Shown here piece after piece: positions 13,378 through 39,916 of a stretch of 45,144 nucleotides of DNA. Every line of letters begins with the position of its first letter. Position 1 is the first letter of the stretch. The DNA comes from a virus (taxonomy: Duplodnaviria > Caudoviricetes): the IMG/VR virus record IMGVR_UViG_3300032253_000005, positions 1 through 45,144 of that record. One strand, 5' to 3'. A program made the position numbers and the translations under genes. The notes beneath the pieces were generated by a model. It made no database searches and was not told the DNA's origin. It saw nothing but the letters and a program-made list of their open reading frames with translations.

Positions 13378-13743
13378 TCAGCTTGCGCCCTTCAGCGCCT
13401 CGACCACGGGCGGGCGGGGCACCGGGGCCTTGTAGCCCGGCAGCTTGGAGATCCCGACCGTGCCTTCCGGGCTCGAGCTGATCTTCAGGTGGACGTCGTC
13501 GCTCTGGCGCACGCCCTCGGGGTAGCCCGACTTGAGCGCCGAGTAGACGCCGGACCGGAAGCGAGCGACCGCCTTGGTCAGCTCCTCGCCGGCCAGGCCG
13601 GTGCTCTTGGCGATGTTGACCACCAGGGTCCGCCCCTCGCGGGCCTCGCCCTCACCCGGCAGGGCCATCGCCAACACGCGGCCCACCACCTCCTCGTACT
13701 TGCTCGGCGTCACCGCCGCCACTTCCTCCATGACCAGACCCAT
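13378..13743 (-). CDS. Hypothetical protein
   Basis: AGGAG RBS 6 nt before ATG 13743; good codon usage. Confidence 0.65.
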   Translation of the reverse strand: MGLVMEEVAAVTPSKYEEVVGRVLAMALPGEGEAREGRTLVVNIAKSTGLAGEELTKAVARFRSGVYSALKSGYPEGVRQSDDVHLKISSSPEGTVGISKLPGYKAPVPRPPVVEALKGAS

Positions 13744-14323
13744 CGCCATCTCCTGTTCCGTTGCGTAGCAGCCCGGCGACACGCGCCACCGGCAACTGCG
13801 GTGCTGATAGTAACTCCTTGCTCGCCGCTGAATCAAGTGCGTCCTGCGCCATCCTGTTCCACATGGCGACGAACGTGCGGCGAACAGACGCCAGTCGCTG
13901 CGGGCTTGCGCTCATGTCCCACGGTGCGTAGTCCATGGCCTCGATGACGTAGAGCACCTCGCCCGTGACGAGACCGGATCTCTCGCCTGGCTTCCCGGCC
14001 CTTGCCATCTCAGCGGAGGCCCACGCCTCGTCGGCTGTCAGCAGTTGACCGCCCATCACCCGCGTGACGATCGCGGCGAACTCCGGGACGGATGGGAAGA
14101 ACCTGGAGCCGCTGCGGTACGCGATCCTCGCCGACTTGACGATCGCCTCTTCCGGTATGTGGCTGAACTCCGAGCGCCACAGCGCGGCCGTCGCCTCGCT
14201 GATCTCAGCGTTGGGATACGCTCCCGCCAGGATCATCATGGCCTGTTGCAGCGCCGAAGGCCCTGGCGATGGAGGCTGCGCTCCTGTCTGTCCGTGTGTC
14301 TCGTGCCCTGTCTCGTGGCTCAT
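13652..14323 (-). CDS. Replicative helicase loader/inhibitor-like protein (G39P-like)
   Basis: LAGAYP...LW...F......FFPSVPEF and TADEAW motifs; follows initiator-like gene; start uncertain. Confidence 0.65.
   Translation of the reverse strand: MSHETGHETHGQTGAQPPSPGPSALQQAMMILAGAYPNAEISEATAALWRSEFSHIPEEAIVKSARIAYRSGSRFFPSVPEFAAIVTRVMGGQLLTADEAWASAEMARAGKPGERSGLVTGEVLYVIEAMDYAPWDMSASPQRLASVRRTFVAMWNRMAQDALDSAASKELLSAPQLPVARVAGLLRNGTGDGDGSGHGGSGGGDAEQVRGGGGPRVGDGPAG
13807..13836 (-). promoter_or_regulatory. Putative sigma70-type promoter TTGATT-N18-TACTAT embedded in upstream gene
   Basis: AT-rich rare-codon patch about 65 bp upstream of the 13743 start; overlaps a degenerate 29-bp palindrome. 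Confidence 0.45.
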
Positions 14324-15008
14324 GGTCTCCGATCACGCATGGCTTGTTGATGTTGGCGGCGAGCTGCCTGACCGAGCGCCCGACTTGAGCGATCCAGTGG
14401 TCATCGCAGTGCAGGAACCGCTCGACCCTGCCGGCCAGGTCTCGAGACTCCAGGGCCCCGAGCAGCTTCCTGGCGACAGCGACGTCGGCCTGCCTGTCTG
14501 GGACGTAGACCGATCCGGTTGCCAGTTGGTAGCGCTGCGCGAAGAAAGCGAGGAAGGCCTCGACCCTCTCCTTGGCGATGCCACCTGTCCTCCGCTGTAC
14601 CGGGGACACCTTACCCGAGGCTGCTCGAGCTGCCTGCCTGGTCTCCTTCTTCCTCTCGCGCTGGAGGAAGCGCTCCGAGTTCGTGCGGCCGAGGCCCGGG
14701 AAGACGTAGGCCCCTGCGGATGTCTGCACCGCGCCGGCAGTGACGACCTCCGTCCACCCGGCGGCGCACTCCTCTTCGCTGATCGTCCGCGGCAGCCTGC
14801 CCCAGATGATCTCGGGTGTCAGGTTTCCGGCGGCGATGATGACGTCGATCGGCCTGCTGTGATCCCCGTCCCAGATCACGTCGCCGTCGTCGAGCGCGAT
14901 CGAACACGCCATGAGGAAGACGTGGCCAGCGATCGGTGACAGCTTGGCGAGTGATGGGGATGAGGACCACAGCAGGCCCGACACGCGCTGGTATGTTTCA
15001 GCGGGCAT
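14205..15008 (-). CDS. Putative replication initiator/replisome organiser
   Basis: N-terminal LS..A..VF....DDG pattern, basic linker, position upstream of helicase loader. Confidence 0.45.
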   Translation of the reverse strand: MPAETYQRVSGLLWSSSPSLAKLSPIAGHVFLMACSIALDDGDVIWDGDHSRPIDVIIAAGNLTPEIIWGRLPRTISEEECAAGWTEVVTAGAVQTSAGAYVFPGLGRTNSERFLQRERKKETRQAARAASGKVSPVQRRTGGIAKERVEAFLAFFAQRYQLATGSVYVPDRQADVAVARKLLGALESRDLAGRVERFLHCDDHWIAQVGRSVRQLAANINKPCVIGDHEPRDRARDTRTDRSAASIARAFGAATGHDDPGGSVSQR

Positions 15009-15016
15009 CGGTCACG

Positions 15017-16144
15017 TCAAAACGGGACTTCGTCGTAGTCCGCCAGCGGGTCAGGCGCAGCCGGGGCGCCGCCAGTCGCCTCGTGGACTTCGGCCACCCG
15101 CTCCTGCCACTGGTTGGTCCACCAGATGGACGGCGTCTCCTTGCCGTTGTTGCTCTGCTCGCACTCCTTGCTGCGACACTTGAAGTCGGGCGCCTTCGGG
15201 TTCTTCTTGCCGAACTTGCCCTTGCCGCCACGCTCGGGCTCGCGGTTGTCCCAGGTCGCACCACCGCAGTTGGCGCAGCGAGGGTGATCGACGCAGGGCC
15301 AGGCGCTGCCGCACTCCCCGCAGGCTGACCCGATGGGCAGACCCAGCATCTGACCGCCGGCCGGCTGGCCCGGCTTGACCGGAGGTGGCTCGGACGAATC
15401 GAACACCTCGACCACCTCGCCGGGCTGCATGGGCGGGAGTCCCGTCGGCGGAGGAGCCTCGGCCCGGTCCTCGTGTACCGTGGCCGCCTCGCCGCTCGAT
15501 GCCCAGCCCGCCGACCTGATCTTCTGCGCCGCGGCATCCATGTCCCCGGCGCACGCCTCCAGGGCCCCCTTGCAGTGCATCAGCGACGCCCCGGTCAGCT
15601 CACGCAAGGCCGTCACCGCCAAGGCGTCGATGGTCCTGGTCAGCGAGCGATCGAACTCCTGCTCCACTGCGCCCAGCTTCGGGGCGATCCAGTGCGTCCA
15701 CTTGCCGGTCTGCTTGTGCTTGTGGGCCTTGGCGCCACTGCCGTCCGGCGGCCAGCCTGGTCGCAGCTGGACCTTCGTCTCGCCCAGGGAGTACAGCTCA
15801 CGCCCCACGCCCCAGAGCACACCGGCACGCTTCAGTGCCCCGGACCAGGCGCCCTTCATGGCCTCGATGTCAGTCGCCGGGCAGACGTCGTACTTCCAGA
15901 GCCATGTGCGTCCGTCGTCACCGAGCACCCCGATGCCGACCTTGAAGCCCGCCTCCTGCCCGCACGTCACCTGCTCGCCGGAGACCTGCCACCCGAACAG
16001 CCCGAAGGCTTCGTCGAACCTGTCTTGTACGGCGCGGCTTGTGACGTAGGCCAGGATGCGGACCCACTCTCCGACCTGGCTCTGCACCCGCCACTCCAAC
16101 TCCTCGTCGGTCATCGGCGCCGTCAGTATGTCGAAGCTGCTCAC
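15017..16144 (-). CDS. Rad52/Rad22-family single-strand annealing protein with EF-Ts-like insert, Zn ribbon and acidic tail
   Basis: EWRVQ..LAYVTSRAVQDRFDEAFG..W and KGAWSGALKRAGVLWGVGRELY Rad52 motifs; CANCGG.WDNR...KAPDFKC; ends DYDEVPF; GTG start with GGAGG RBS. Confidence 0.9.
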   Translation of the reverse strand: MSSFDILTAPMTDEELEWRVQSQVGEWVRILAYVTSRAVQDRFDEAFGLFGWQVSGEQVTCGQEAGFKVGIGVLGDDGRTWLWKYDVCPATDIEAMKGAWSGALKRAGVLWGVGRELYSLGETKVQLRPGWPPDGSGAKAHKHKQTGKWTHWIAPKLGAVEQEFDRSLTRTIDALAVTALRELTGASLMHCKGALEACAGDMDAAAQKIRSAGWASSGEAATVHEDRAEAPPPTGLPPMQPGEVVEVFDSSEPPPVKPGQPAGGQMLGLPIGSACGECGSAWPCVDHPRCANCGGATWDNREPERGGKGKFGKKNPKAPDFKCRSKECEQSNNGKETPSIWWTNQWQERVAEVHEATGGAPAAPDPLADYDEVPF

Positions 16145-17016
16145 TTGTCCTCCTCCTTGGGCTTGATCTCTTGCCAGTAGGAGCAGAACTCCGAGACGGA
16201 GCACCAGTCCTGACAGCGCCGGCTCGTGCCGGGGCGCTCGATGATGGCGTAGTCGCTGGGCCGCTTCTGCTCGATCACCCAGTCCTCGGCCTCGTCCATG
16301 CTCGTGCAGACCTTCGACGCCCGCTTGTTGGCCGGCTTCTGCACAGCCCAGGTGTCCTCGGTCTGCCAGCGTTCCTCGGCAGTGCAAGGCTCGGGCGTGG
16401 ACGTGGACTGGGCAGCGATGCGCCGCTCGATCAGGCCCGTGGCCGCCACGGGCGAGAGCAACTCGACCTGATGCACGGTGATCGGGGCCTGCGGGTAGGC
16501 TGAGTCACGGGCAGCCTCGGCCTTCGACCAGTCCAGGCAGATGAACACGACGCGGAGACCGAAGACCTCGACGCCGTTGCGCCTGGCCAACTCGGCGTAG
16601 ATGTTCTCCTGCTCGACCCAGTCATCGGGCACGCCGCCCTTGATCTTGTACGCCTTGCCGGTCTTGTAGTCGTCGATGATGGTGCCGTGCTCGATGGCAG
16701 TCATCACGTCGACCTGGCCGGAGACCATCACGCCGTTGAAGTCGGCGAACAGGCGCTCCTCGACAGTGACGCTGGGCATCCCGGCGGCGGCCTCGAGGAT
16801 CGCGTGGACCGCCGACCCGAAGAGGCTCGACACGCCGTCGCTGGCGTCCACGACGATGTCGCTGGCGTGCTGGATCTGGAGTCGCCGCTGCCAGGCCGGC
16901 TTGAGCAGCTCGGTGGCCGAGAAGTCGGCGCTGCCCTTGCTGTAGCTGGCGTTGAATGCCTTGATCGCCTCGACTACGGGCGCGGGCAGGTCGTGCTTGT
17001 TCGTCATCGTGCTCAT
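16141..17016 (-). CDS. PD-(D/E)xK (Cas4/RecB-like) exonuclease
   Basis: SATEL, GSAVHAILE, EERL, SGQVD, DYKT, Q..IY motifs and C-terminal C...C.....C; adjacent to annealase. Confidence 0.85.
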   Translation of the reverse strand: MSTMTNKHDLPAPVVEAIKAFNASYSKGSADFSATELLKPAWQRRLQIQHASDIVVDASDGVSSLFGSAVHAILEAAAGMPSVTVEERLFADFNGVMVSGQVDVMTAIEHGTIIDDYKTGKAYKIKGGVPDDWVEQENIYAELARRNGVEVFGLRVVFICLDWSKAEAARDSAYPQAPITVHQVELLSPVAATGLIERRIAAQSTSTPEPCTAEERWQTEDTWAVQKPANKRASKVCTSMDEAEDWVIEQKRPSDYAIIERPGTSRRCQDWCSVSEFCSYWQEIKPKEEDK

Positions 17017-17017
17017 G

Positions 17018-17260
17018 TCAGCCCTCCACGGGTGATAGGTAGCGCATACCGCGCCGGTGCTTGGCGCCGAGGATCGACCTGATGGTCATCTCCATGTCGC
17101 CGGATGTGTCTCGCACGATAGCAGGATACCATCCCTCCTTCGCGCAGCGTAGTGCGACCTTCTCGGCGACGTACTCGGACGTCCAGCCTGGGATGAGTCG
17201 CGTTGTTTTGCCGCTCTCTCCGTTCACCAGGAGCGGAGCGTACCTCTCGTCTTTCGTCAC
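17018..17260 (-). CDS. Hypothetical protein
   Basis: 80-aa ORF filling the gap, GTGA overlap. Confidence 0.55.
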   Translation of the reverse strand: MTKDERYAPLLVNGESGKTTRLIPGWTSEYVAEKVALRCAKEGWYPAIVRDTSGDMEMTIRSILGAKHRRGMRYLSPVEG

Positions 17261-17622
17261 AGCATCTCCATCGCCAGCATCCTCACGAGCGTCTCCATCC
17301 GCATCGAGACGACCTGGTCCAAGAAGGCCGGCTGACCGCGCAGCTTGTAGACGACGACCGGCAGCGGTGCGCCAGGGACTCTAGCAGCCTGCTCCCCCGC
17401 CTCACGCAGCCACTGCCCTACGTTGTGCTGCTTGCGGTTCTTGGCCTGGATCACGATGGTGCCGAAGCCGGAGCGCAGGTGGATGTCGCCGACGTCCTCG
17501 TTGCCGTGGTCCTTGCCGTAGTTGCCCATGCGCTCGGCGTTGAGACCGAGAGCTACGAGCCCGTCGTGGATCAGCTTCTCGTAGGCCGTGCCCTTGGCCT
17601 TGTGCTTGTTTCCAGCGCTCAC
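17257..17622 (-). CDS. Holliday junction resolvase (Hjc-like)
   Basis: KAKGTAYEK...GDI...IQAKN...W..EA pattern. Confidence 0.8.
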   Translation of the reverse strand: MSAGNKHKAKGTAYEKLIHDGLVALGLNAERMGNYGKDHGNEDVGDIHLRSGFGTIVIQAKNRKQHNVGQWLREAGEQAARVPGAPLPVVVYKLRGQPAFLDQVVSMRMETLVRMLAMEML

Positions 17623-23219: not shown

Positions 23220-23624
23220 CTACGCTCGTGGCGGTCTCAGAAACTTGTCACGCATGATGGCTGGGACGTCGATCACGGTGACTCCTTTGGCCTTGGCCTG
23301 TCGGACCATGTTCGCCGTTCCACGGCCCCCTGGAAAGGCGACGACGGCGATGGGCCCTGGCATTGGAAGGAGCCTGTCGAGCATCTCGCGGTTGCGGATA
23401 GGGCCGGCCGCCTTGCCGTGGACCTTCCAGTTGGCCTCGATCTCCAGGACCTGCGTGTCGCGCCCGCTGGCCCACTTCCTGGCCAGCTCGTCGGCGCCCC
23501 GCGCACCGCCCTCGATGATCGTGTCTGGAGCGATCGAGTCGAGAACGCGGCTGACGCACATAGCATCTTTGTAGTCCCTGCCGCCGCAGACGATGATGGA
23601 CCGCGGACTGCCTGGGTTGCTCAC
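23220..23624 (-). CDS. SLOG-family protein (DUF2493/YspA-like)
   Basis: [42 protein letters not shown] motifs. Confidence 0.9.
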
Positions 23625-24064
23625 GGCGCCAGGCTCGGGACGAGGACGCTGTCTACGTCTCCGCCGCACGTCGTCACGAGACGGCACGCGATCTCGCACG
23701 CCTCCTCTGCCGATGCCCCGGCCGCCATCGCCCCAAGCGCAACCTCGGCACCAGATCCCCAGGCCCACACGCCAGGGTACTCGGTGGGCTCTGCGTACCT
23801 CGAGTAGTAGCTCGCCATGTTTGGCGTTGAGCTGCAAACTACGATGATCCCGGAAGGGTCTGCCCATTCACGCGGAACAGGGAACTCGAGTGTCCTCTCC
23901 CGGTACCATCGGTGCAGGGCGTCGCACTCATCCAGGTCACCCATGCCCGCCGCTGCGTAGCCATCTCCGGTCACGAGCTTCATCGCCTCCCTGGCCAGGT
24001 CGTGGCCGTTGACGTGCAACCGATCGCACGCTAGAACCCCGTCCTTCAGCGCTATGACTGTCAT
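23621..24064 (-). CDS. Ntn-hydrolase peptidase (HslV/proteasome-beta-like)
   Basis: N-terminal MT-VIA...LACD, AWGSG...ALGAM..GASAEEA..IA......GG. Confidence 0.8.
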
Positions 24065-24186
24065 CCTTGGTCCTCCTTGAGCGGTGTGTCTCTGGCTGGC
24101 TCCAGGGCGGCCTTGGCCCAGGCAATGAAGGCCCGGTTGCTGCGAATGACGGCTCGCCACGAACGTCCGCGAAAGTTGTACTTCAT
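24061..24186 (-). CDS. Small hypothetical protein (41 aa)
   Basis: AGGAGG RBS, ATGA overlaps. Confidence 0.55.
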   Translation of the reverse strand: MKYNFRGRSWRAVIRSNRAFIAWAKAALEPARDTPLKEDQG

Positions 24187-24473
24187 GGGTCGCCCTCCTG
24201 GGGCGGTGGTGCTTTCTGGGAGGCCCATGCCTTGATGAAGGCGACCTCGAGCCAGCCTGGGTCGCCGCAGTCGTCGGCCTCGCCGTCCCACTCGAAGACC
24301 GTGGCCTGCTCGATGCGCCACCCGTCGCGGTCGAAGTCGTAGCTGATGCGGATGTCGTCAGCAGCACGGACGTCTATGAGGCCGACGAGTATGTAGCTGG
24401 GGCTCTCGGGGAGCCGTGGATACCAGAGGTCCGCAAGGGTGTGAGTCCCGTCACGGCTTACGCCAAGAGTCAT
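24183..24473 (-). CDS. Hypothetical protein
   Basis: GGAG RBS; DVRAADDIRISYDFDRDGW. Confidence 0.65.
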   Translation of the reverse strand: MTLGVSRDGTHTLADLWYPRLPESPSYILVGLIDVRAADDIRISYDFDRDGWRIEQATVFEWDGEADDCGDPGWLEVAFIKAWASQKAPPPQEGDP

Positions 24474-24655
24474 CCTGGATCTCCCTTGATCTCGACATGG
24501 GACTGCTCGCCGTTCCAGAAAAGATGGCCTATGAGTCCGAGCAGGGCCTCCTTCGGCCATGTGCTATCAACGGACTGGCCGAGGAAGGTGTAGTCGTGCC
24601 AGTCTCCGGCGTGGCCGGCAACGGCAGCTTCGATCGCTTCTTCGCGTGTCGTCAT
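24470..24655 (-). CDS. Hypothetical protein
   Basis: 61 aa, ATGA overlap. Confidence 0.55.
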   Translation of the reverse strand: MTTREEAIEAAVAGHAGDWHDYTFLGQSVDSTWPKEALLGLIGHLFWNGEQSHVEIKGDPG

Positions 24656-24680
24656 CCTTCGTCGATCTCCCGCTCGGTCT

Positions 24681-24941
24681 TCATGGCCCTGGAATCTCGT
24701 GGCGCAGGATCGGCTTGGCGGAGTACACCTCTTTCATTGCAGCCAGCGAGTCCTGGAACCACGCGGGGTTGTCCTTGTAGAGCGTCCGCCACTTCACCGC
24801 CCTTGGGTCGCCAAAGGGGTTCCCTCGAGAGATCGCCTGGTTGGCGTCGAGTTCTCCCTGGCTGATCGTCAGAGAGTCGACGGCCCTGGCCTTGCGGAGC
24901 CTGACCAGGCGGAGGATGCGCCGATGTGCGTAGGTCGTCAT
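24681..24941 (-). CDS. Hypothetical protein
   Basis: GGAG RBS before ATG 24941. Confidence 0.55.
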   Translation of the reverse strand: MTTYAHRRILRLVRLRKARAVDSLTISQGELDANQAISRGNPFGDPRAVKWRTLYKDNPAWFQDSLAAMKEVYSAKPILRHEIPGP

Positions 24942-25036
24942 TTCGTCAGTCTCCGATAGAGCCGGTTCGCCTGCCGCCTGGCCGGTAGGTCGTCGAGCCA
25001 CCAGAGGGCGACGGCGAGGGCGAGCCAGAAGGTCAC
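24938..25036 (-). CDS. 32-aa membrane peptide
   Basis: MTFWLALAVALWWLDD...; GTGA/ATGA overlaps. Confidence 0.45.
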   Translation of the reverse strand: MTFWLALAVALWWLDDLPARRQANRLYRRLTK

Positions 25037-25140
25037 GTGAGCAGCTCCCGGATGAGCCAAAGCACGAAGGCCCAGCCGAGCACTCCGATCAGGACCAGGA
25101 GGCCGAACCCGAGGGCCTTGAGGGCTTGCTTGGTGGTCAT
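25033..25140 (-). CDS. Small membrane peptide
   Basis: LGFGLLVLIGVLGWAFVLWLI TM; alternative GTG start at 25194. Confidence 0.55.
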   Translation of the reverse strand: MTTKQALKALGFGLLVLIGVLGWAFVLWLIRELLT

Positions 25141-25190
25141 GACGCTGCGTCGATGCGTCGATGACGGCTGCGCTCTCTTGTCGTGGCCCG

Positions 25191-25511
25191 TCACTCCCCC
25201 TCCGGCAGCAGCCCAGCCCCGTCGAGGGCGCGGAGGATGGCGAGGAGCGGGGACGGTTCCTCGCGCCACTCCAGCTCTTGGCTGCCCACGTAGACATACG
25301 CCGAGTAGTAGCCGCCCACCGTGTCAATGGATGCGGTCACGTCTGGCAGCGCTACGCACTTCGCCAGCAGCGCGACGAGGAGGTCCGCACCGAGCCTGCC
25401 GCGCCCCATGAGCAACAGTTGCCCAGCCTGTCCAGGCGGGAGCCCGCAGACGCCCATCCCGCACCACATCGCCCCGCGCACTGCGAGGGCTGTTTCGTTG
25501 TCGTCAGTCAT
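25191..25511 (-). CDS. Hypothetical protein
   Basis: ATGA overlap; C-terminal SPLLAILRAL helix. Confidence 0.6.
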   Translation of the reverse strand: MTDDNETALAVRGAMWCGMGVCGLPPGQAGQLLLMGRGRLGADLLVALLAKCVALPDVTASIDTVGGYYSAYVYVGSQELEWREEPSPLLAILRALDGAGLLPEGE

Positions 25512-25840
25512 GCTCGCTTCCCATGCATACGCGCTCGGTCTCGGTTCTTGGCCATCTTGTCTACGATCGCCTGCTCCAAGTTGATCCCGAGAGCCTCGGC
25601 TGTGTCGAACACTCGGATGCAGATGTCGGCCAGCTCCTCGCGGAAGTTGTCGGGGTCGTCCTTTCGCACGGCCTCGGCAGCCTCGGCGACCTCTGTAGAG
25701 ATGAGCATGAGCCAAGACAGGACGTGCCGAGGCTCCGCCCATGCGTCAGGCAATGGCATGTCGTCGTGGAAGCCGTGCTCCCTCGCTGTGCGGTGCGCTT
25801 CTTCGGCGTACTCATTGAGCTTCCCAAATCCGTAGCTCAC
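25508..25840 (-). CDS. mazG: MazG-like nucleoside triphosphate pyrophosphohydrolase
   Basis: TEVAEAAEA.RK...EELAD..IR..D and KMAKN..R...HGK motifs. Confidence 0.85.
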   Translation of the reverse strand: MSYGFGKLNEYAEEAHRTAREHGFHDDMPLPDAWAEPRHVLSWLMLISTEVAEAAEAVRKDDPDNFREELADICIRVFDTAEALGINLEQAIVDKMAKNRDRARMHGKRA

Positions 25841-26244
25841 CCCAGCCCCCTAACCGCCCGCAGCGCGAGCAGGCAGGCGTCGGTGGTGGCGTGGGGCTGG
25901 GTGGGGCGATCAAGGTCGCGGACTGCAACCAGCGGGCCCGTGATGGATCCGTTCCCTGCCCTGGCGGTGCCGTCTGGGAGCGTCGCGACCCATTGATTCT
26001 CGCCCGTCTCCCGCGCCGTGAACCCAGCCAGCTCGGCGGCCTGGGCGTGGTCGGTGCGGTAGTTTGGGATGGGGAACAGGTTGCCCTGGCCAGGAGGCTT
26101 GCCGTCGTCCTCGACGAGCATCCCCTCCAGGATGATGAGCCCCATCGCCAGCGCAGCCTCCACCGCAGCGGCTGCGTCGTCCATGATGGACACGTCTGGA
26201 TGGGCCGCGACGTGGGCGCGGTACTCGGGGGTCGGGGTGGTCAT
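25837..26244 (-). CDS. Hypothetical phage protein (ABA-sandwich-like)
   Basis: IPNYRTD..QA motif and C-terminal AC..AL helix. Confidence 0.55.
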   Translation of the reverse strand: MTTPTPEYRAHVAAHPDVSIMDDAAAAVEAALAMGLIILEGMLVEDDGKPPGQGNLFPIPNYRTDHAQAAELAGFTARETGENQWVATLPDGTARAGNGSITGPLVAVRDLDRPTQPHATTDACLLALRAVRGLG

Positions 26245-26507
26245 GCGTCGGCCTCCGGATCAAACGCAGAGCACACGGGCCTGCCGCGCTCGTCGTGTGT
26301 CCACTCTGCGGGATAGTCGGCAGAGTCCACGTCATGGGCCAGGGCCAGGGCCAGGGCGATCAATCGGCACCCGTCCTCCGGCCTGCCTTCGCGGGCTGCC
26401 CAATCCTGCGTGCAGCGGTCGCACCATACGTGCTGGAACATCCCTCCCTCGGTGCCATTGCTGGGTCGGTAAGGCTTGCCAGACAACGCTAGAATCTCGT
26501 AAGGCAT
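26241..26507 (-). CDS. Conserved Cys-containing phage protein
   Basis: YRPSNGTEG..F...WC..C...C...YP.EW...P.C..F. Confidence 0.65.
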   Translation of the reverse strand: MPYEILALSGKPYRPSNGTEGGMFQHVWCDRCTQDWAAREGRPEDGCRLIALALALAHDVDSADYPAEWTHDERGRPVCSAFDPEADA

Positions 26508-26659
26508 CACCCCTCCTCCGCGACGGTCTCGCCGCAGCGCGAGCAGGTAAGAGCGGCCCGCTCGGAAGCAGCTCTGCGCTCGGCGTACCAGCCGAGCAGC
26601 GCGACCACGATGCCGAGCAAGAAGCCGGCCAGCAATGCTCTGTCGCTGTCGGGGTTCAT
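26507..26659 (-). CDS. Small membrane protein (50 aa, not in ORF track)
   Basis: MNPDSDRALLAGFLLGIVVALLGWYAERR...CSRCGETVAEEG; overlaps both neighbours. Confidence 0.6.
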   Translation of the reverse strand: MNPDSDRALLAGFLLGIVVALLGWYAERRAASERAALTCSRCGETVAEEG

Positions 26660-27087
26660 GGCTCAGAGTCCGCGACGGTCTCGCCGCAGTCGTCCATCAT
26701 GTTGCGGAGCTGCTCCTTGATCCCCGCGATTAGGTCCATATCAGGCCCTCCTATCGTTGCGTCGAACACCTCTCTCGGCGTGCAGTTGGGGGCGTACCTG
26801 CCTCGCACCTCCCAGCCGCCCACGCCGATGAAGCGGTTTCTGGTGTTCTTGGAAAGGGCCATCGGATCAATGCTCGCCCACTGCTCTTTCGTGATGGTGT
26901 AAACATCTTTGTAGACCGCGCAGCGCCCCGCGTCGTCGATCAGATCGGGGTCTATGCTGTCGACAACAGCGATCCGAAATGCCTCGTCAAATAGCACTGA
27001 GAGCATTGCCTTCATGCTCACTCTCGGGTCGTCAGCATCTATGTCGTTGCTGAATACGTCGCCGATCCAGTTCCTGGCATTTTCCAT
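26656..27087 (-). CDS. Hypothetical protein, lower GC (moron-like)
   Basis: GAGGAG RBS; many A/T-ending codons. Confidence 0.7.
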   Translation of the reverse strand: MENARNWIGDVFSNDIDADDPRVSMKAMLSVLFDEAFRIAVVDSIDPDLIDDAGRCAVYKDVYTITKEQWASIDPMALSKNTRNRFIGVGGWEVRGRYAPNCTPREVFDATIGGPDMDLIAGIKEQLRNMMDDCGETVADSEP

Positions 27088-27500
27088 CACTCCTCCTCAG
27101 CGACGGTCTCGCCCTGGGCGTGGCGGTCGAGGATGGCGAGCACTTCGTCCGTGGTCTGTGATGAGCACGTCTCTTCCGCGCTGTCCTCGCACCATCTTCG
27201 CAGCCGCCGCTCCAGCTCGTCGCGCTGGGCCATCTGCCGGTCAGCGATGCGGATCAGGTCGTCGACCTGGGCCTTGAGCTGCTCCACCTCGGCCACCGCC
27301 CGCAGCATCTCCGGCACGCGCCGAGGGTCGATGGGGTGCGGGTGGTAGGTGTCGGGGTCGACCTCGCCGCACTCGTCGTACCACATGGCTCGGCTCCGCC
27401 ACGCGAGAGCGTAGTGTGGGCCGGTGACGTTGCCGTCGTACCGCACCGCATACCACCTCTCGGCCTCTGGCGGCGTGCCGGCGTCGATGTAATCGGTCAC
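27087..27500 (-). CDS. Hypothetical protein with coiled coil
   Basis: GTGA overlap, GTG start 27500. Confidence 0.6.
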   Translation of the reverse strand: MTDYIDAGTPPEAERWYAVRYDGNVTGPHYALAWRSRAMWYDECGEVDPDTYHPHPIDPRRVPEMLRAVAEVEQLKAQVDDLIRIADRQMAQRDELERRLRRWCEDSAEETCSSQTTDEVLAILDRHAQGETVAEEE

Positions 27501-27871
27501 TGCGGGCCACCCGTCGGCATCTTCGCCAGCGCGAACTCGTCCGGCCCCCGCGTGCCCCACACGAAGTCCGACTCGTCCCGCACCTCGACCACGCCCGCCG
27601 GCCACACGATCGCCTCCGGCAGCCCTGGCGCCTGGGCGACATCGACAGCCACGAAGCTCGACCCCGCGATGCTGACGTAGGCCAGGTCACCGACACGAGC
27701 CAGCACGGCCGGCAGGATGCGGTCGCCGATCTGGAGCGAGAGCCTGCTGGTGTGCCAACCGGTCGGGACGCCGGTCGGTGGCGCGGTGCGCTCGATGCCG
27801 CCGACTCCATCGGCGCCTGTGAGCAGGGGGACGGCCAGGGCCAGGGCCAGGGCGATGGTGAGGGTGTTCAT
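27497..27871 (-). CDS. Exported protein with signal peptide
   Basis: MNTLTIALALALAVPLLTGA hydrophobic leader. Confidence 0.6.
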   Translation of the reverse strand: MNTLTIALALALAVPLLTGADGVGGIERTAPPTGVPTGWHTSRLSLQIGDRILPAVLARVGDLAYVSIAGSSFVAVDVAQAPGLPEAIVWPAGVVEVRDESDFVWGTRGPDEFALAKMPTGGPQ

Positions 27872-28428
27872 CGTTCGTCTTCTCCGGTGGGTCCGCACTG
27901 GTATGCGATCAGCAGCAGTCCTGCCGCATCGCGGTAGCACTCTTCTCGGTCGTCGCCGGCACGCAGCCGCACCAGCTTCTGGAGCAACTCGATTGTGGCC
28001 ATGCGCTCGCCTGGGCACCACGGCACGCCAGCTCCAGCCATGGAGTCGAGCACGCCCACCATCGCCTCGGCCTTGGCCTTGTTCCTGGGGCCTGACCCAC
28101 GCCTGGCCGCCCGGTCGCCAGTCACGTCGTCATGGGCTTCGGTGAGAATCGAGACCGCGGTGAGGATCGGTGGCGTGGTCTCGCCGTCCTTCGCCTGGTC
28201 CTCGAGGTCTGCGACGACGTAGCTCTGCACGATGACCTTGGCCGCTTCGGCGGAGTCGTACACCACGGGCTCTCTCATGCAGTAGCTGCTGCCGATCCAG
28301 GCGTCGAAGCCATCGACGCGGCTGAGAGCCACACTTCCGAGGATCGCTCCGTCTGGACCGACAAGGCGCCAACTCCCCCGCGGCTCCCTGTGCCACTCAA
28401 GGGTGTTCGGATCAATGCTTGCTGCCAT
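27868..28428 (-). CDS. DUF6378-like domain protein
   Basis: SILTEA...VTGDR...G, K..R.......Y.DAAG pattern; GGAGG RBS. Confidence 0.6.
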   Translation of the reverse strand: MAASIDPNTLEWHREPRGSWRLVGPDGAILGSVALSRVDGFDAWIGSSYCMREPVVYDSAEAAKVIVQSYVVADLEDQAKDGETTPPILTAVSILTEAHDDVTGDRAARRGSGPRNKAKAEAMVGVLDSMAGAGVPWCPGERMATIELLQKLVRLRAGDDREECYRDAAGLLLIAYQCGPTGEDER

Positions 28429-28461
28429 CTCGCCCTCCAAGGCTGGTGTCGCTGGCCGTTG

Positions 28462-28506
28462 TTGACCAGCCACGGGAACTGTCGCATGATCGCCGGCACA
28501 GTGCAA
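28462..28506. promoter_or_regulatory. Overlapping divergent sigma70-type promoters
   Basis: + TTGACC-N17-CATGAT (28462-28490); - TTGCAC-N17-GACAGT (28506-28478). Confidence 0.55.
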
Positions 28507-28524
28507 GGAAAACAAGGAGACGCC

Positions 28525-28740
28525 ATGAAGATGCAGCACCCGCCTCCAGTCGCGCTCGCTTTCGCTTCCGCGTTCGCCTGGTTCCCGGAAGTCACGCGCC
28601 CTGCCTGCCTCGGCTACGCCGGCACCGAGGTCCTGGCCTGGGTGGTCCACTGGGCTCGCCATCGCCCCAAGCGCAAGGCCATCTCCGAGGCTCGCGCAGG
28701 CTCCTACTGGGAGTCGGCCAGCATCTACCAGGAGATGTAA
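28525..28740 (+). CDS. Hypothetical protein (71 aa), opposite to neighbours
   Basis: AAGGAG RBS and upstream promoter. Confidence 0.5.
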   Translation: MKMQHPPPVALAFASAFAWFPEVTRPACLGYAGTEVLAWVVHWARHRPKRKAISEARAGSYWESASIYQEM

Positions 28741-28764
28741 GTCCAGCGCCAGGGCGGACTTACG
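28736..28764. promoter_or_regulatory. 29-bp palindromic site S2 TGTAAGTC-N13-GACTTACG
   Basis: Perfect GTAAGTCC/GGACTTAC arms. Confidence 0.7.
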
Positions 28765-28879
28765 GCAGATCGCCGACTCCGCCAAGGCACAAGGGCCACG
28801 ATGAAGGAGGCCCACTCCTGTTGACTCTTGGCGGGGGACAGCAGGAGCGGGCCGAGGTGGGCCTTAACATCGCCTCCGT

Positions 28880-37917: not shown

Positions 37918-38351
37918 CGAACATCGGCGAGAACCTCGCCGCCTGGATGACGCGCACCTTCCGCGTCGGGCCTCAGTCGCTGGGCGTGACACCGTCACTG
38001 AGCGATGGGTCGAACTACTACGACGAGGCAACGATCTACCAGGGGCACCCGGCACCGCAGAAGGCTTACGCAGTGATCGGCAACGGCTTCGTGACACAGA
38101 CAGGGGCTGCCTACGTCACGGTGGTCGAGGAGAACCTCGGCAGAATCGGCGGAGTGACAATCTGCAACCCGCTTTCCGTCGGAGGATGGGATGTGTTCCT
38201 GTCCTTCAACGACGAGTCACTGGGCGCGAACGGCCTGCTGCTCAAGAAGGGCACGGTGCGAGAGATACAAACGACCGCGAAGATCCGGGCCTACGTCCCG
38301 GCGAGCGCCGGGCCCATGAACATTTCCTACGTTGAACTCGGAGTCGAGTAG
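37914..38351 (+). CDS. Probable virion beta-sandwich protein
   Basis: I.N......VFLSF......NGLLL..G pattern of phage decoration-type domains. Confidence 0.55.
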   Translation: MTNIGENLAAWMTRTFRVGPQSLGVTPSLSDGSNYYDEATIYQGHPAPQKAYAVIGNGFVTQTGAAYVTVVEENLGRIGGVTICNPLSVGGWDVFLSFNDESLGANGLLLKKGTVREIQTTAKIRAYVPASAGPMNISYVELGVE

Positions 38352-39916
38352 TGGCCACGCGATACGAACCTACCTTCCTGCCCGAGACGACCGTCGGCGT
38401 TGGTACGCTCGACGAGTTGGACATCCCGTATGTCCCGAGCGACACGTCGGCCGGCACCGAGGCACAGAAGATCGACCGCTACCCGCCCTGGCACAGCAAG
38501 CCGCAGGCCGGGCACCCGACCCTGGTGCTGATCTCGTTCTCGAGCTTCACCTACAGTCACCGCGCCCCGAACGGAGTGTCCTTCCAGCTCGGGCCGGGGT
38601 CCGACAACGCGATGCTGCGCGTGGCCTATGAGGCCCAGCGCGAAGGCGTCCAGGTCATCATGGCCAGCGTGTCCGTGGCCCGCGGTGGCTCGACAGGAAA
38701 CAACACGAGCGACGCCTCCTACGATCCCCCGAACAGCCTGTACGACAGTGCGTACACCGAAGGCAACGGGACGTTCATCCCGCCCGGCGAAAACCCGCAG
38801 GGAAACGCGACCGCGCCGTTCGCTGACTTCGACTACCCGATGGCCATCAAGGACGTGGCCTGGATCGTCCAGAAGCTGAAGGAGGACGCAGTCGGCCTGG
38901 AGGTCGACCCCGACAACATCGTCCTCATGGGCTCGTCGGCCGCCGGGTTCACCTCGGCCTTTACGGCTTTGAGCGCTGACCTGAGCGCCCACTTCGCAGC
39001 CGGCAGCGACACCCAGAACGCCCAGTCGACGCGCATCAAGGGCTGGATTCCATGGAGCACGCCGACCTTCATGCCGGCGATGAAGCCATCGACCTCCATC
39101 GCCCACGCCTTCCCGACGATCGCTGACCAGGACATCCCTGCTGCACTGCTCAACGACGTCTACCCGTCCACGACGATCGACGACACGAACTACCAGTGGC
39201 GTCTGTCCCCGCTGCACTACGCCGACCCGGCAAACGGCGTGCAGACCTTGGCGATCTACGAGTCCCCGTCGGTCTCCAAGCAGATCAGCAAGAACAACGA
39301 CACGATCACGCTGGGCGAGGAGACCGACTTCCACGGCCTACGCCACGGCGCCGCGCTGCGCGACCGTCTTCCGTCGCACGTCAAGCTGATCTACTCACCG
39401 TCGGCCGAGAACTACGATGCCTACACCCAGGCACGCAACCTGTTCGGCATCGAGGACGAGATCCTCGTGCAAGAGAACGGGAACCAGGCCGATGAGTTGG
39501 TGACCTACGTCATCGACTGGCTGCTCACGCTGGTTGGCCTGAAGATCACCTTGCCGTCGAACGTGGCTCTGCCCTACGGAGCTGCGATCTGCAAGGAGCA
39601 CAACATCATCATCCCGACCGCCGGCAGCTACCATCGCGTCTTGCGGGCCAACCCTCGCCGCGCCGGCCCGGTGACGGTTCAGATCCAGTCCACGGACCCG
39701 GCGTACCCAGGGACAGAGTTCCAGGTTCGCTGGGCAACCAACCCAGTGACCCCGACGCTCGGCATCTTCCAGACGAACTACGGTGCGCTTGACACGGTCG
39801 CTGGCAGCAAGAGAGAGACCCTCCGGCTCGACATCGGCGGCGGCGAGTTATGGGTGACGCATCGAGTGGGGACTCCCGGCAACCACTTCGCCTCTGTCCT
39901 TGAGCCGACCTACTGA
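38351..39916 (+). CDS. Alpha/beta-hydrolase (esterase-like) virion-associated protein
   Basis: IKDVAWIVQKLK......VDPDNIVLMGSSAAG nucleophile elbow; candidate His in DFHG..HG; C-terminal beta domain. Confidence 0.7.
   Translation: MATRYEPTFLPETTVGVGTLDELDIPYVPSDTSAGTEAQKIDRYPPWHSKPQAGHPTLVLISFSSFTYSHRAPNGVSFQLGPGSDNAMLRVAYEAQREGVQVIMASVSVARGGSTGNNTSDASYDPPNSLYDSAYTEGNGTFIPPGENPQGNATAPFADFDYPMAIKDVAWIVQKLKEDAVGLEVDPDNIVLMGSSAAGFTSAFTALSADLSAHFAAGSDTQNAQSTRIKGWIPWSTPTFMPAMKPSTSIAHAFPTIADQDIPAALLNDVYPSTTIDDTNYQWRLSPLHYADPANGVQTLAIYESPSVSKQISKNNDTITLGEETDFHGLRHGAALRDRLPSHVKLIYSPSAENYDAYTQARNLFGIEDEILVQENGNQADELVTYVIDWLLTLVGLKITLPSNVALPYGAAICKEHNIIIPTAGSYHRVLRANPRRAGPVTVQIQSTDPAYPGTEFQVRWATNPVTPTLGIFQTNYGALDTVAGSKRETLRLDIGGGELWVTHRVGTPGNHFASVLEPTY

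Follow-up and report, generated by a model that had tools for sequence, protein, structure and literature searches.

A putative phage Rad52/Sak-type annealase with an insert resembling the N-terminal domain of elongation factor Ts

The window, that is, the complete stretch of 45,144 bases analyzed here, is the whole of a virus record whose genome is estimated to be 94% complete. Capsid and terminase-like genes are carried on its plus strand, and a run of replication and recombination genes on its minus strand. In this run, an open reading frame of 375 amino acids (P0001; 15017..16144, minus strand), which the protein collection also contains under two sources, encodes a Rad52/Sak-like annealase with an inserted N-terminal domain of elongation factor Ts (EF-Ts). 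Its GTG start overlaps the stop codon of the upstream exonuclease gene, and an AGGAGG sequence located just upstream constitutes a strong ribosome-binding site. The upstream gene (16141..17016, minus strand) encodes a PD-(D/E)XK exonuclease (PF12705, E 1.3e-5; phrog_2139 exonuclease, E 1.1e-44) and, with their overlapping stop and start, the two genes form the usual exonuclease-annealase pair. A RusA-like Holliday junction resolvase (17257..17622, minus strand; phrog_244, E 9e-21) belongs to the same gene run. A search of the genome for an SSB gene gave no match.

The other genes of the record deserve a brief description. Directly downstream of the annealase, two genes on the minus strand (13652-15008) encode proteins of 267 and 223 amino acids without any Pfam match, the second of which matches phrog_9804; their position suggests, as a guess, a replication initiator and a helicase-loader-like protein. 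Accessory genes are found at 23220-28815 on the same strand, including a SLOG/YAcAr protein (23220-23867), an HslV-family peptidase (23621-24367), a MazG-like pyrophosphatase (25508-25840) and a weak phosphofructokinase-like match (27868-28815). On the plus strand, amid the structural genes, a protein of 521 amino acids (38351-39916) contains an alpha/beta-hydrolase domain of the BD-FAE esterase type (E 1.8e-8).

The annealing core occupies residues 1-157 of the protein (15674..16144, minus strand). It matches phrog_1097 (E 1.7e-33) and the Rad52_Rad22 family PF04098 (E 4.8e-11), the latter at residues 7-126 with 43.3 bits, well above the curated cut-off of 20.3 bits, and the Rad52 core claimed by the earlier note is thereby confirmed. 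In a whole-protein model built on 50 homologues, the core is predicted with confidence up to residue 157 (pLDDT mostly >90). The best solved matches of this predicted core in Foldseek are Mgm101 and RAD52 (E 3e-6 to 6e-4), and 12 matches are obtained at E<=0.001. Beyond the core, the model proposes helices at residues 157-185 and 188-211; residues 213-263 come out as disordered, and the confidence of the Cys region is moderate. On the basis of its sequence, its predicted fold and the adjoining exonuclease, the protein is assigned to the Rad52/Sak family. It has in common with the phage Rad52-like annealing proteins (Sak; PF04098) the core sequence, the predicted fold, the upstream exonuclease, the nearby resolvase and a variable C-terminal accessory region, but differs from them by the presence of an EF-Ts N-domain, two Cys clusters and an acidic tail of its own ending in Pro-Phe, in a genome where no SSB gene was found. 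According to the available text of two studies, the C-terminal regions of annealases serve partner interactions and not annealing (PMC11783212), and the 80alpha phage Sak protein, which assembles into large rings, cooperates with SSB via its C-terminal parts (PMC11846896).

The core is followed by a connecting stretch (residues 158-170; 15635..15673, minus strand), missing in the closest relatives and predicted as a helix that continues into the insert. The insert itself (residues 171-213; 15506..15634, minus strand), whose translation is identical to that quoted in the earlier note, is by sequence a module of the EF-Ts N-terminal type (TS-N, UBA fold) with three predicted helices. Residues 172-213 can be aligned without any gap to residues 3-44 of the E. 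coli EF-Ts (1efu_B), with 19 identities out of 42 as counted from the alignment, in good agreement with the earlier note, which had proposed an EF-Ts N-domain with roughly 19/43. The TIGR00116 model gives an E value of 5.1e-10 on the insert segment and of 1.4e-8 on the whole protein, where its score of 34.3 bits is below the cut-off of 104.05. In Pfam, the segment obtains E 0.0013 with EF-Ts_N and E 0.0071 with the best generic UBA model, UBA_4, both under their cut-offs. The mitochondrial EF-Ts N model PF25025 yields 19.1 bits for a cut-off of 33.2, which is not discriminating because a full-length phage EF-Ts also falls below it (21.4). Among PDB sequences, the segment matches EF-Ts at E 4e-5 and the best non-EF-Ts UBA at E 0.3. 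The first refuting condition of the earlier note, a segment matching EF-Ts no better than it matches generic UBA domains, is thus contradicted (TIGR00116 5e-10 versus 0.007).

Structural comparison is less selective. The insert, modeled with a 12-row alignment of EF-Ts N-domains, is predicted as a three-helix bundle (pLDDT 83), and its 17 best Foldseek rows are all EF-Ts chains, none with E<=0.001. In a fold comparison, 1efu_B (Z 7.6, rmsd 2.1, 49 aligned) ties with the UBA domain of the archaeal NAC, 1tr8_B (Z 7.6, rmsd 1.6, 42 aligned). Since shape alone does not separate EF-Ts from the NAC UBA domain, the EF-Ts origin rests on sequence. With the EF-Ts N-domains of PDB entries 1efu and 7vmx, the insert shares 45-48% identity without gaps, and its model superimposes at 0.5-1.1 A rmsd over ~40 residues, a value to be read in light of a model itself built on an alignment of EF-Ts N-domains. 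The insert is accordingly interpreted as an EF-Ts-derived N-domain, not a generic UBA. Its closest sequences are a cellular EF-Ts (22/41 identical) and a phage module (21/41), which are about equally close, so that neither lineage stands out as the donor. Atlas matches of the module, to viral clusters of 50-55 amino acids, are all under 0.9. An origin from L7/L12 was rejected, as the segment has no Ribosomal_L12 match.

A short segment, under Pfam cut-offs and occurring only once, could also be suspected of being a chance similarity or the product of a chimeric assembly. Next to no credence is given to this explanation. Using a profile from 11 other EF-Ts N-domains, the real protein scores 39.9 bits and the best of 2000 shuffles 7.9, in line with the TIGR00116 match (E 5e-10). 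Furthermore, a single contig of sequencing run X1, possibly the source of the record, spans the region 14000-17200 and shows 0 differences. Run X2, which bears another study code, provides a contig of 361 bases over 15529-15889, again with 0 differences, that bridges the core and the insert with an identical junction. Run X3 gave short partial matches only and was left out, and no RNA data set was listed as containing the sequence. The artefact is refuted by the junction found in the second run and by the shuffle control. The insert is also intact and in frame, devoid of gaps or stops, with a GC3 of 0.95 versus 0.89 in the core and a codon use similar to the rest of the gene.

Downstream of the insert, the earlier note had listed a Pro-rich linker, two Cys clusters and a DYDEVPF end, all of which are present in the sequence. 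The Pro/Glu-rich linker (residues 214-263; 15356..15505, minus strand) is predicted to be disordered (pLDDT <50 over 213-263). The first Cys cluster (C275, C278, C284, H287; 15284..15322, minus strand), a predicted metal site, is kept in the relatives P0002, P0003, P0203, P0204 and P0206, and with a longer spacing in P0242. The second one (C290, C293, C323, C328; 15161..15277, minus strand) surrounds a basic loop and is a predicted zinc ribbon without a Pfam family; it was detected above 35 bits in 17 of 222 annealase-like proteins, a set that includes the best 150 of 5845 matches, by means of a profile derived from nine of these proteins. The four Cys/His ligands of each site are conserved in relatives. 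The Cys region as a whole has no Pfam match, and its Atlas matches are all under 0.9. As for the end of the protein, the C-terminal tail of SSB proteins is acidic and terminates in Pro-Phe. The tail found here (15020..15040, minus strand) has acidic residues and a terminal Pro-Phe, lies in a stretch of low confidence (pLDDT <50 at 359-375) and has similar counterparts in subfamily relatives. Since no SSB gene was found in the genome, this tail may itself recruit host SSB partners.

The idea that the Cys clusters and the tail are special to this protein must be abandoned, as both also occur in the subfamily relatives. The second cluster is scattered over the tree and associated with other annealase-like N-domains (P0074, P0075, P0242). 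Accessory modules, including the Cys clusters, are shuffled among annealases, the clusters and the tail marking a small annealase subfamily. Another C-terminal helical domain is likewise described, in the available text of PMC8093625, as shuffled among many annealases. The segment 15077-15322, with its equivalents in P0074, P0075 and P0242, looks like an unnamed mobile accessory domain of annealases devoid of a Pfam family. An occurrence of this Cys module in Rad52 proteins of Gemmatimonadota was not confirmed (0/160 of the best bacterial and viral loci).

None of 80 homologues scores above noise with either TS-N profile, and the same result was obtained with 141 further proteins (best 150 of 5845 matches in a representative search) and with 160 Rad52 ORFs (best 80 of 571 bacterial loci and best 80 of 582 viral loci); these 221 homologous proteins and 160 locus ORFs are sets that may overlap. 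No close relatives sharing the insert were found in viral contigs, and the searches of metagenome contigs and with the segment returned only the record itself. When a profile of the phage module was run against longer proteins, no Rad52 fusion was present among the best 120 of 1119 matches, mostly cellular EF-Ts, which is weak evidence. The Rad52/EF-Ts-N fusion amounts to a single instance in all the sets searched. Five proteins (P0002, P0003, P0203, P0204 and P0206) are without the insert despite having the same core, a linker of low complexity, the two Cys clusters and an end of the PF/PI type. A quick tree built from 79 cores places one of them, P0002, as the sister of the annealase (SH-aLRT 92). 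The insert, missing in the relatives and even in this sister, is therefore a derived and dispensable feature. The proposal of the earlier note that annealing is linked to translation factors finds no support as a conserved feature, the insert being absent from every homologue examined (0/221 proteins, 0/160 locus ORFs). The check proposed there, conservation of the EF-Tu interface residues in homologues, already fails because the domain as a whole is missing.

This distribution is an argument for the module as a passenger, brought by illegitimate recombination into a linker that tolerates it and drifting away from EF-Ts as a harmless fold deprived of function. Indeed, the insert is a singleton among the 221 proteins and 160 ORFs, within the best matches specified above for each set, and is located where a linker begins that varies in all the relatives. 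A passenger is nevertheless regarded as somewhat unlikely, on account of the residues considered below. The position of the insert also evokes a bundle repurposed to bind another partner, such as the exonuclease, an SSB tail or some further host protein. The UBA fold serves as a generic adaptor, and the same place after the core is occupied by a domain working with the SSB tail in the 80alpha Sak (available text of PMC11846896) and by a shuffled helical domain in many annealases (PMC8093625, same restriction). Such repurposing is judged clearly unlikely: five relatives with the same other domains do without the bundle, so that this slot need not be filled, and it is the EF-Tu face whose residues the insert keeps.

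Two residues of helices 1 and 2 that contact EF-Tu, an Arg and a Lys (equivalents of R12 and K23 in E. coli), are kept in the insert as R181 and K192. In the alignment, R181, M189 and K192 correspond to R13, L21 and K24 of the M. tuberculosis EF-Ts, so that both residues with a known EF-Tu contact, R13 and K24, are preserved. In M. tuberculosis, R13 and K24 contact EF-Tu and the N-domain binds domain I of EF-Tu; the complex is disrupted by R13A, N82A and H149A, and K24A and L21A do not figure among the disrupting mutants in the available text of this study (PMC9529903). Two of these three essential residues, N82 and H149, belong together with the TDFV-type motif to the EF-Ts core, which is missing here, and this counts against a docking function. 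The core family PF00889 has no match in the protein or in the genome, in a search that was positive in 10 of 14 control genomes. Without this core the protein cannot act as an exchange factor, and mimicry of EF-Ts in this capacity, an earlier suggestion, is excluded. The protein is consequently not classified as an EF-Ts family member.

A reference set of 80 distinct EF-Ts N-domains was assembled from the best 120 of 1119 matches, after removal of one sequence without the anchoring motif and nine without the core motif. At the 16 positions that are at least 90% conserved in this set, nine of which are fixed by the anchoring pattern, 13 are retained by the insert and G18, K35 and L40 are lost. 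The equivalents of K9, G18, M19 and D21 are replaced by T, S, L and H (T178, S187 and L188 for the first three), residues that occur at these positions in only 0-1% of the 80 full EF-Ts N-domains; this again counts against a dock. In the E. coli EF-Ts, binding to EF-Tu involves K9, R12, M19, M20 and K23; a literature search on E. coli EF-Ts N-domain mutants returned nothing relevant. Compared with EF-Ts, the insert is without the core, carries changed equivalents of K9, G18, M19 and D21, and sits within a DNA-annealing protein. In a predicted complex between the module (12-row alignment) and the E. coli EF-Tu, a stand-in from another host, the scores were 0.10 and 0.05 for a mark of 0.32, controls not having been folded, a result that speaks neither for nor against binding. 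The loss of several conserved surface residues, many of them to Ala, would suit a passenger. At a divergence of ~50% (22/41 to the nearest EF-Ts), the hydrophobic core, R181, K192 and the distal Arg-x-x-Gly are nevertheless intact. A passenger is less likely since the preservation of the core, of R181 and K192, of the frame and of the codon use is more than drift would leave, even if fold stability could explain part of it.

The module was then surveyed in other phage proteins by pattern scans of viral contigs, one profile scan and two phage records. In this survey, 31 distinct motifs are followed by an EF-Ts core and 46 are devoid of it, the latter including a duplicate that is truncated, a motif that may be a fragment of tsf, and a few weak rows that may be generic UBA-like sequences. 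The core-less forms are found as stand-alone proteins of 50-60 amino acids, as the C-terminal domain of helical proteins of ~100 amino acids, as N-terminal or internal domains of proteins of 100-370 amino acids, and as a tail on a ParB-CE enzyme. A crude neighborhood check with an rpsB motif revealed a host rpsB-like neighbor in 4 of 31 loci, all with a full EF-Ts, and in no core-less locus. In one mini-protein available in nine copies, the variable codons are synonymous in 8 cases and non-synonymous in 6, none of them at the Arg or the Lys. Retention of these residues was scored by a scan in which neither was fixed (75 loci, from which two chance rows and a locus lacking an open frame were removed). 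The Arg is retained in 21/21 core-bearing and 22/35 core-less modules, and the Lys in 18/21 and 18/35, respectively. Both are present together in 18/21 core-bearing but only 12/35 core-less modules, the annealase insert being of this minority type. As at least one of the two residues is lost in 23 of the 35 core-less modules, the EF-Tu interface is not a constraint on the family in general, and this gradient of decay among phage modules is a further point in favor of a passenger. Since the closest relatives are devoid of the insert and numerous phage proteins unrelated to the annealase contain such a module, the insert is likely to be optional and mobile.

The interpretation tentatively favored is that of a mobile EF-Ts N-domain inserted in a Rad52/Sak-type annealase, where it could provide an optional and weak dock for the host EF-Tu without taking part in the annealing reaction. 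From family knowledge, the upstream exonuclease would resect DNA ends and the Rad52 core would oligomerize and anneal single strands. The Cys clusters and the acidic tail, carried by the flexible linker, may recruit DNA or partner proteins, and the insert may bind domain I of EF-Tu via R181 and K192. A lone domain would presumably bind weakly, with avidity being gained by its display on an oligomeric ring. In a bolder and very unlikely extension, the EF-Ts N-domain would be a widespread and hitherto undescribed phage 'EF-Tu hook', displayed in many copies by the annealase ring, which would compete with the host EF-Ts or blunt EF-Tu defenses and so couple recombination to translation control.

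Ring-displayed EF-Ts N-domains might otherwise act in counter-defense or translation interference, by sequestering or shielding EF-Tu, by blunting defenses or by masking the annealase from sensors. Several observations give substance to this proposal: EF-Tu is taken up by Avs7 in the open form of GDP type and is cut by Lit and by type IV Thoeris, while annealing proteins are sensed by an Avs family (bioRxiv 10.64898/2026.01.04.697583, in the text available); several defenses also target Sak proteins (PMC11846896, likewise). It is however considered highly improbable, and the decoy role envisaged in the earlier note is neither favored nor contradicted by the results. Avs7 binds domains II-III of EF-Tu (same bioRxiv source), whereas the EF-Ts N-domain binds domain I (PMC9529903), both as described in the portions available; EF-Tu is hard to titrate because it represents 6-10% of the proteome (bioRxiv 10.64898/2026.01.04.697583); and nothing at the annealase locus points to defense.

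The favored interpretation, a mobile EF-Ts N-domain, has a precedent in the bL12 (L7/L12) domains that are inserted in larger phage proteins, with homologues that are devoid of them (Mizuno et al. 2019, PMC6375957). In the accessible part of this work, a small translation-factor docking domain is likewise found at variable positions in phage proteins, but the donor protein is another one and the recipient is here an annealase. Partial EF-Ts proteins with a proposed effect on translation have been reported in Caulobacter phage Colossus (gp247, core subdomain N with an F81 equivalent; PMC3556154) and in Ceduovirus (gp21, resembling the C-terminal part; PMC7150918). As far as their descriptions in the available text go, neither corresponds to the N-terminal helical domain or to an annealase fusion. 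The Q-beta replicase, mentioned in bioRxiv 10.64898/2026.01.04.697583 and represented by solved chains, is likewise a phage nucleic-acid enzyme associated with EF-Tu and EF-Ts. The host factors are whole and required subunits there, as opposed to a fragment in an optional insert here. No Rad52/EF-Ts-N fusion or mobile N-domain is described in the literature searched, which consisted of main texts, mostly from outside the subscription journals, and the annealase literature searched contains no mention of 'elongation factor Ts'. The earlier note's statement that this architecture is not known from characterized Sak/Rad52 proteins is consistent with the lack of any describing paper in this search. 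The fusion alone changes little for annealases, as the relatives manage without the insert. Its value is that it clearly exemplifies how a domain that docks on a translation factor can move from one phage protein to another, in parallel to bL12, the core-less EF-Ts N-domain being found in dozens of phage contexts that include an unannotated ORF of a cultured phage. If phages do carry a portable EF-Tu-binding module, this would be relevant to the takeover of the host and to the defenses acting through EF-Tu, which are known in increasing number.

Several loci of the survey are worth describing individually. In the cultured Ralstonia phage RSP15 (L089:1947-2159, plus strand), an unannotated stand-alone EF-Ts N-domain of 70 amino acids keeps both the Arg and the Lys and ends in CxxC. 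Short-type EF-Ts genes of ~200 amino acids are present in viral contigs, several of which exceed 100 kb (L001, L003, L004, L008, L009, L012, L013, L015, L023 and others), and no rpsB-like neighbor was observed for the four genes of this type that were checked. A family of phage proteins of ~100 amino acids combines a helical N-terminal half with a C-terminal EF-Ts N-domain (L242, L209, L218, L246, L213, L176; P0086, P0089, P0113, P0132); His, Asn or Arg often takes the place of the contact Lys in this domain. Two adjoining genes (L183:519-824 and L183:908-1072, plus strand) contain an EF-Ts N-domain each, followed in one of them by a Cys-rich tail. The ParB-CE enzyme mentioned above (L101:1464-2498, minus strand) bears its EF-Ts N-domain at the C-terminus. 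Finally, an unrelated protein of 292 amino acids (L192:285-1160, minus strand) contains an internal copy with the same Gly-to-Ser change as the annealase insert.
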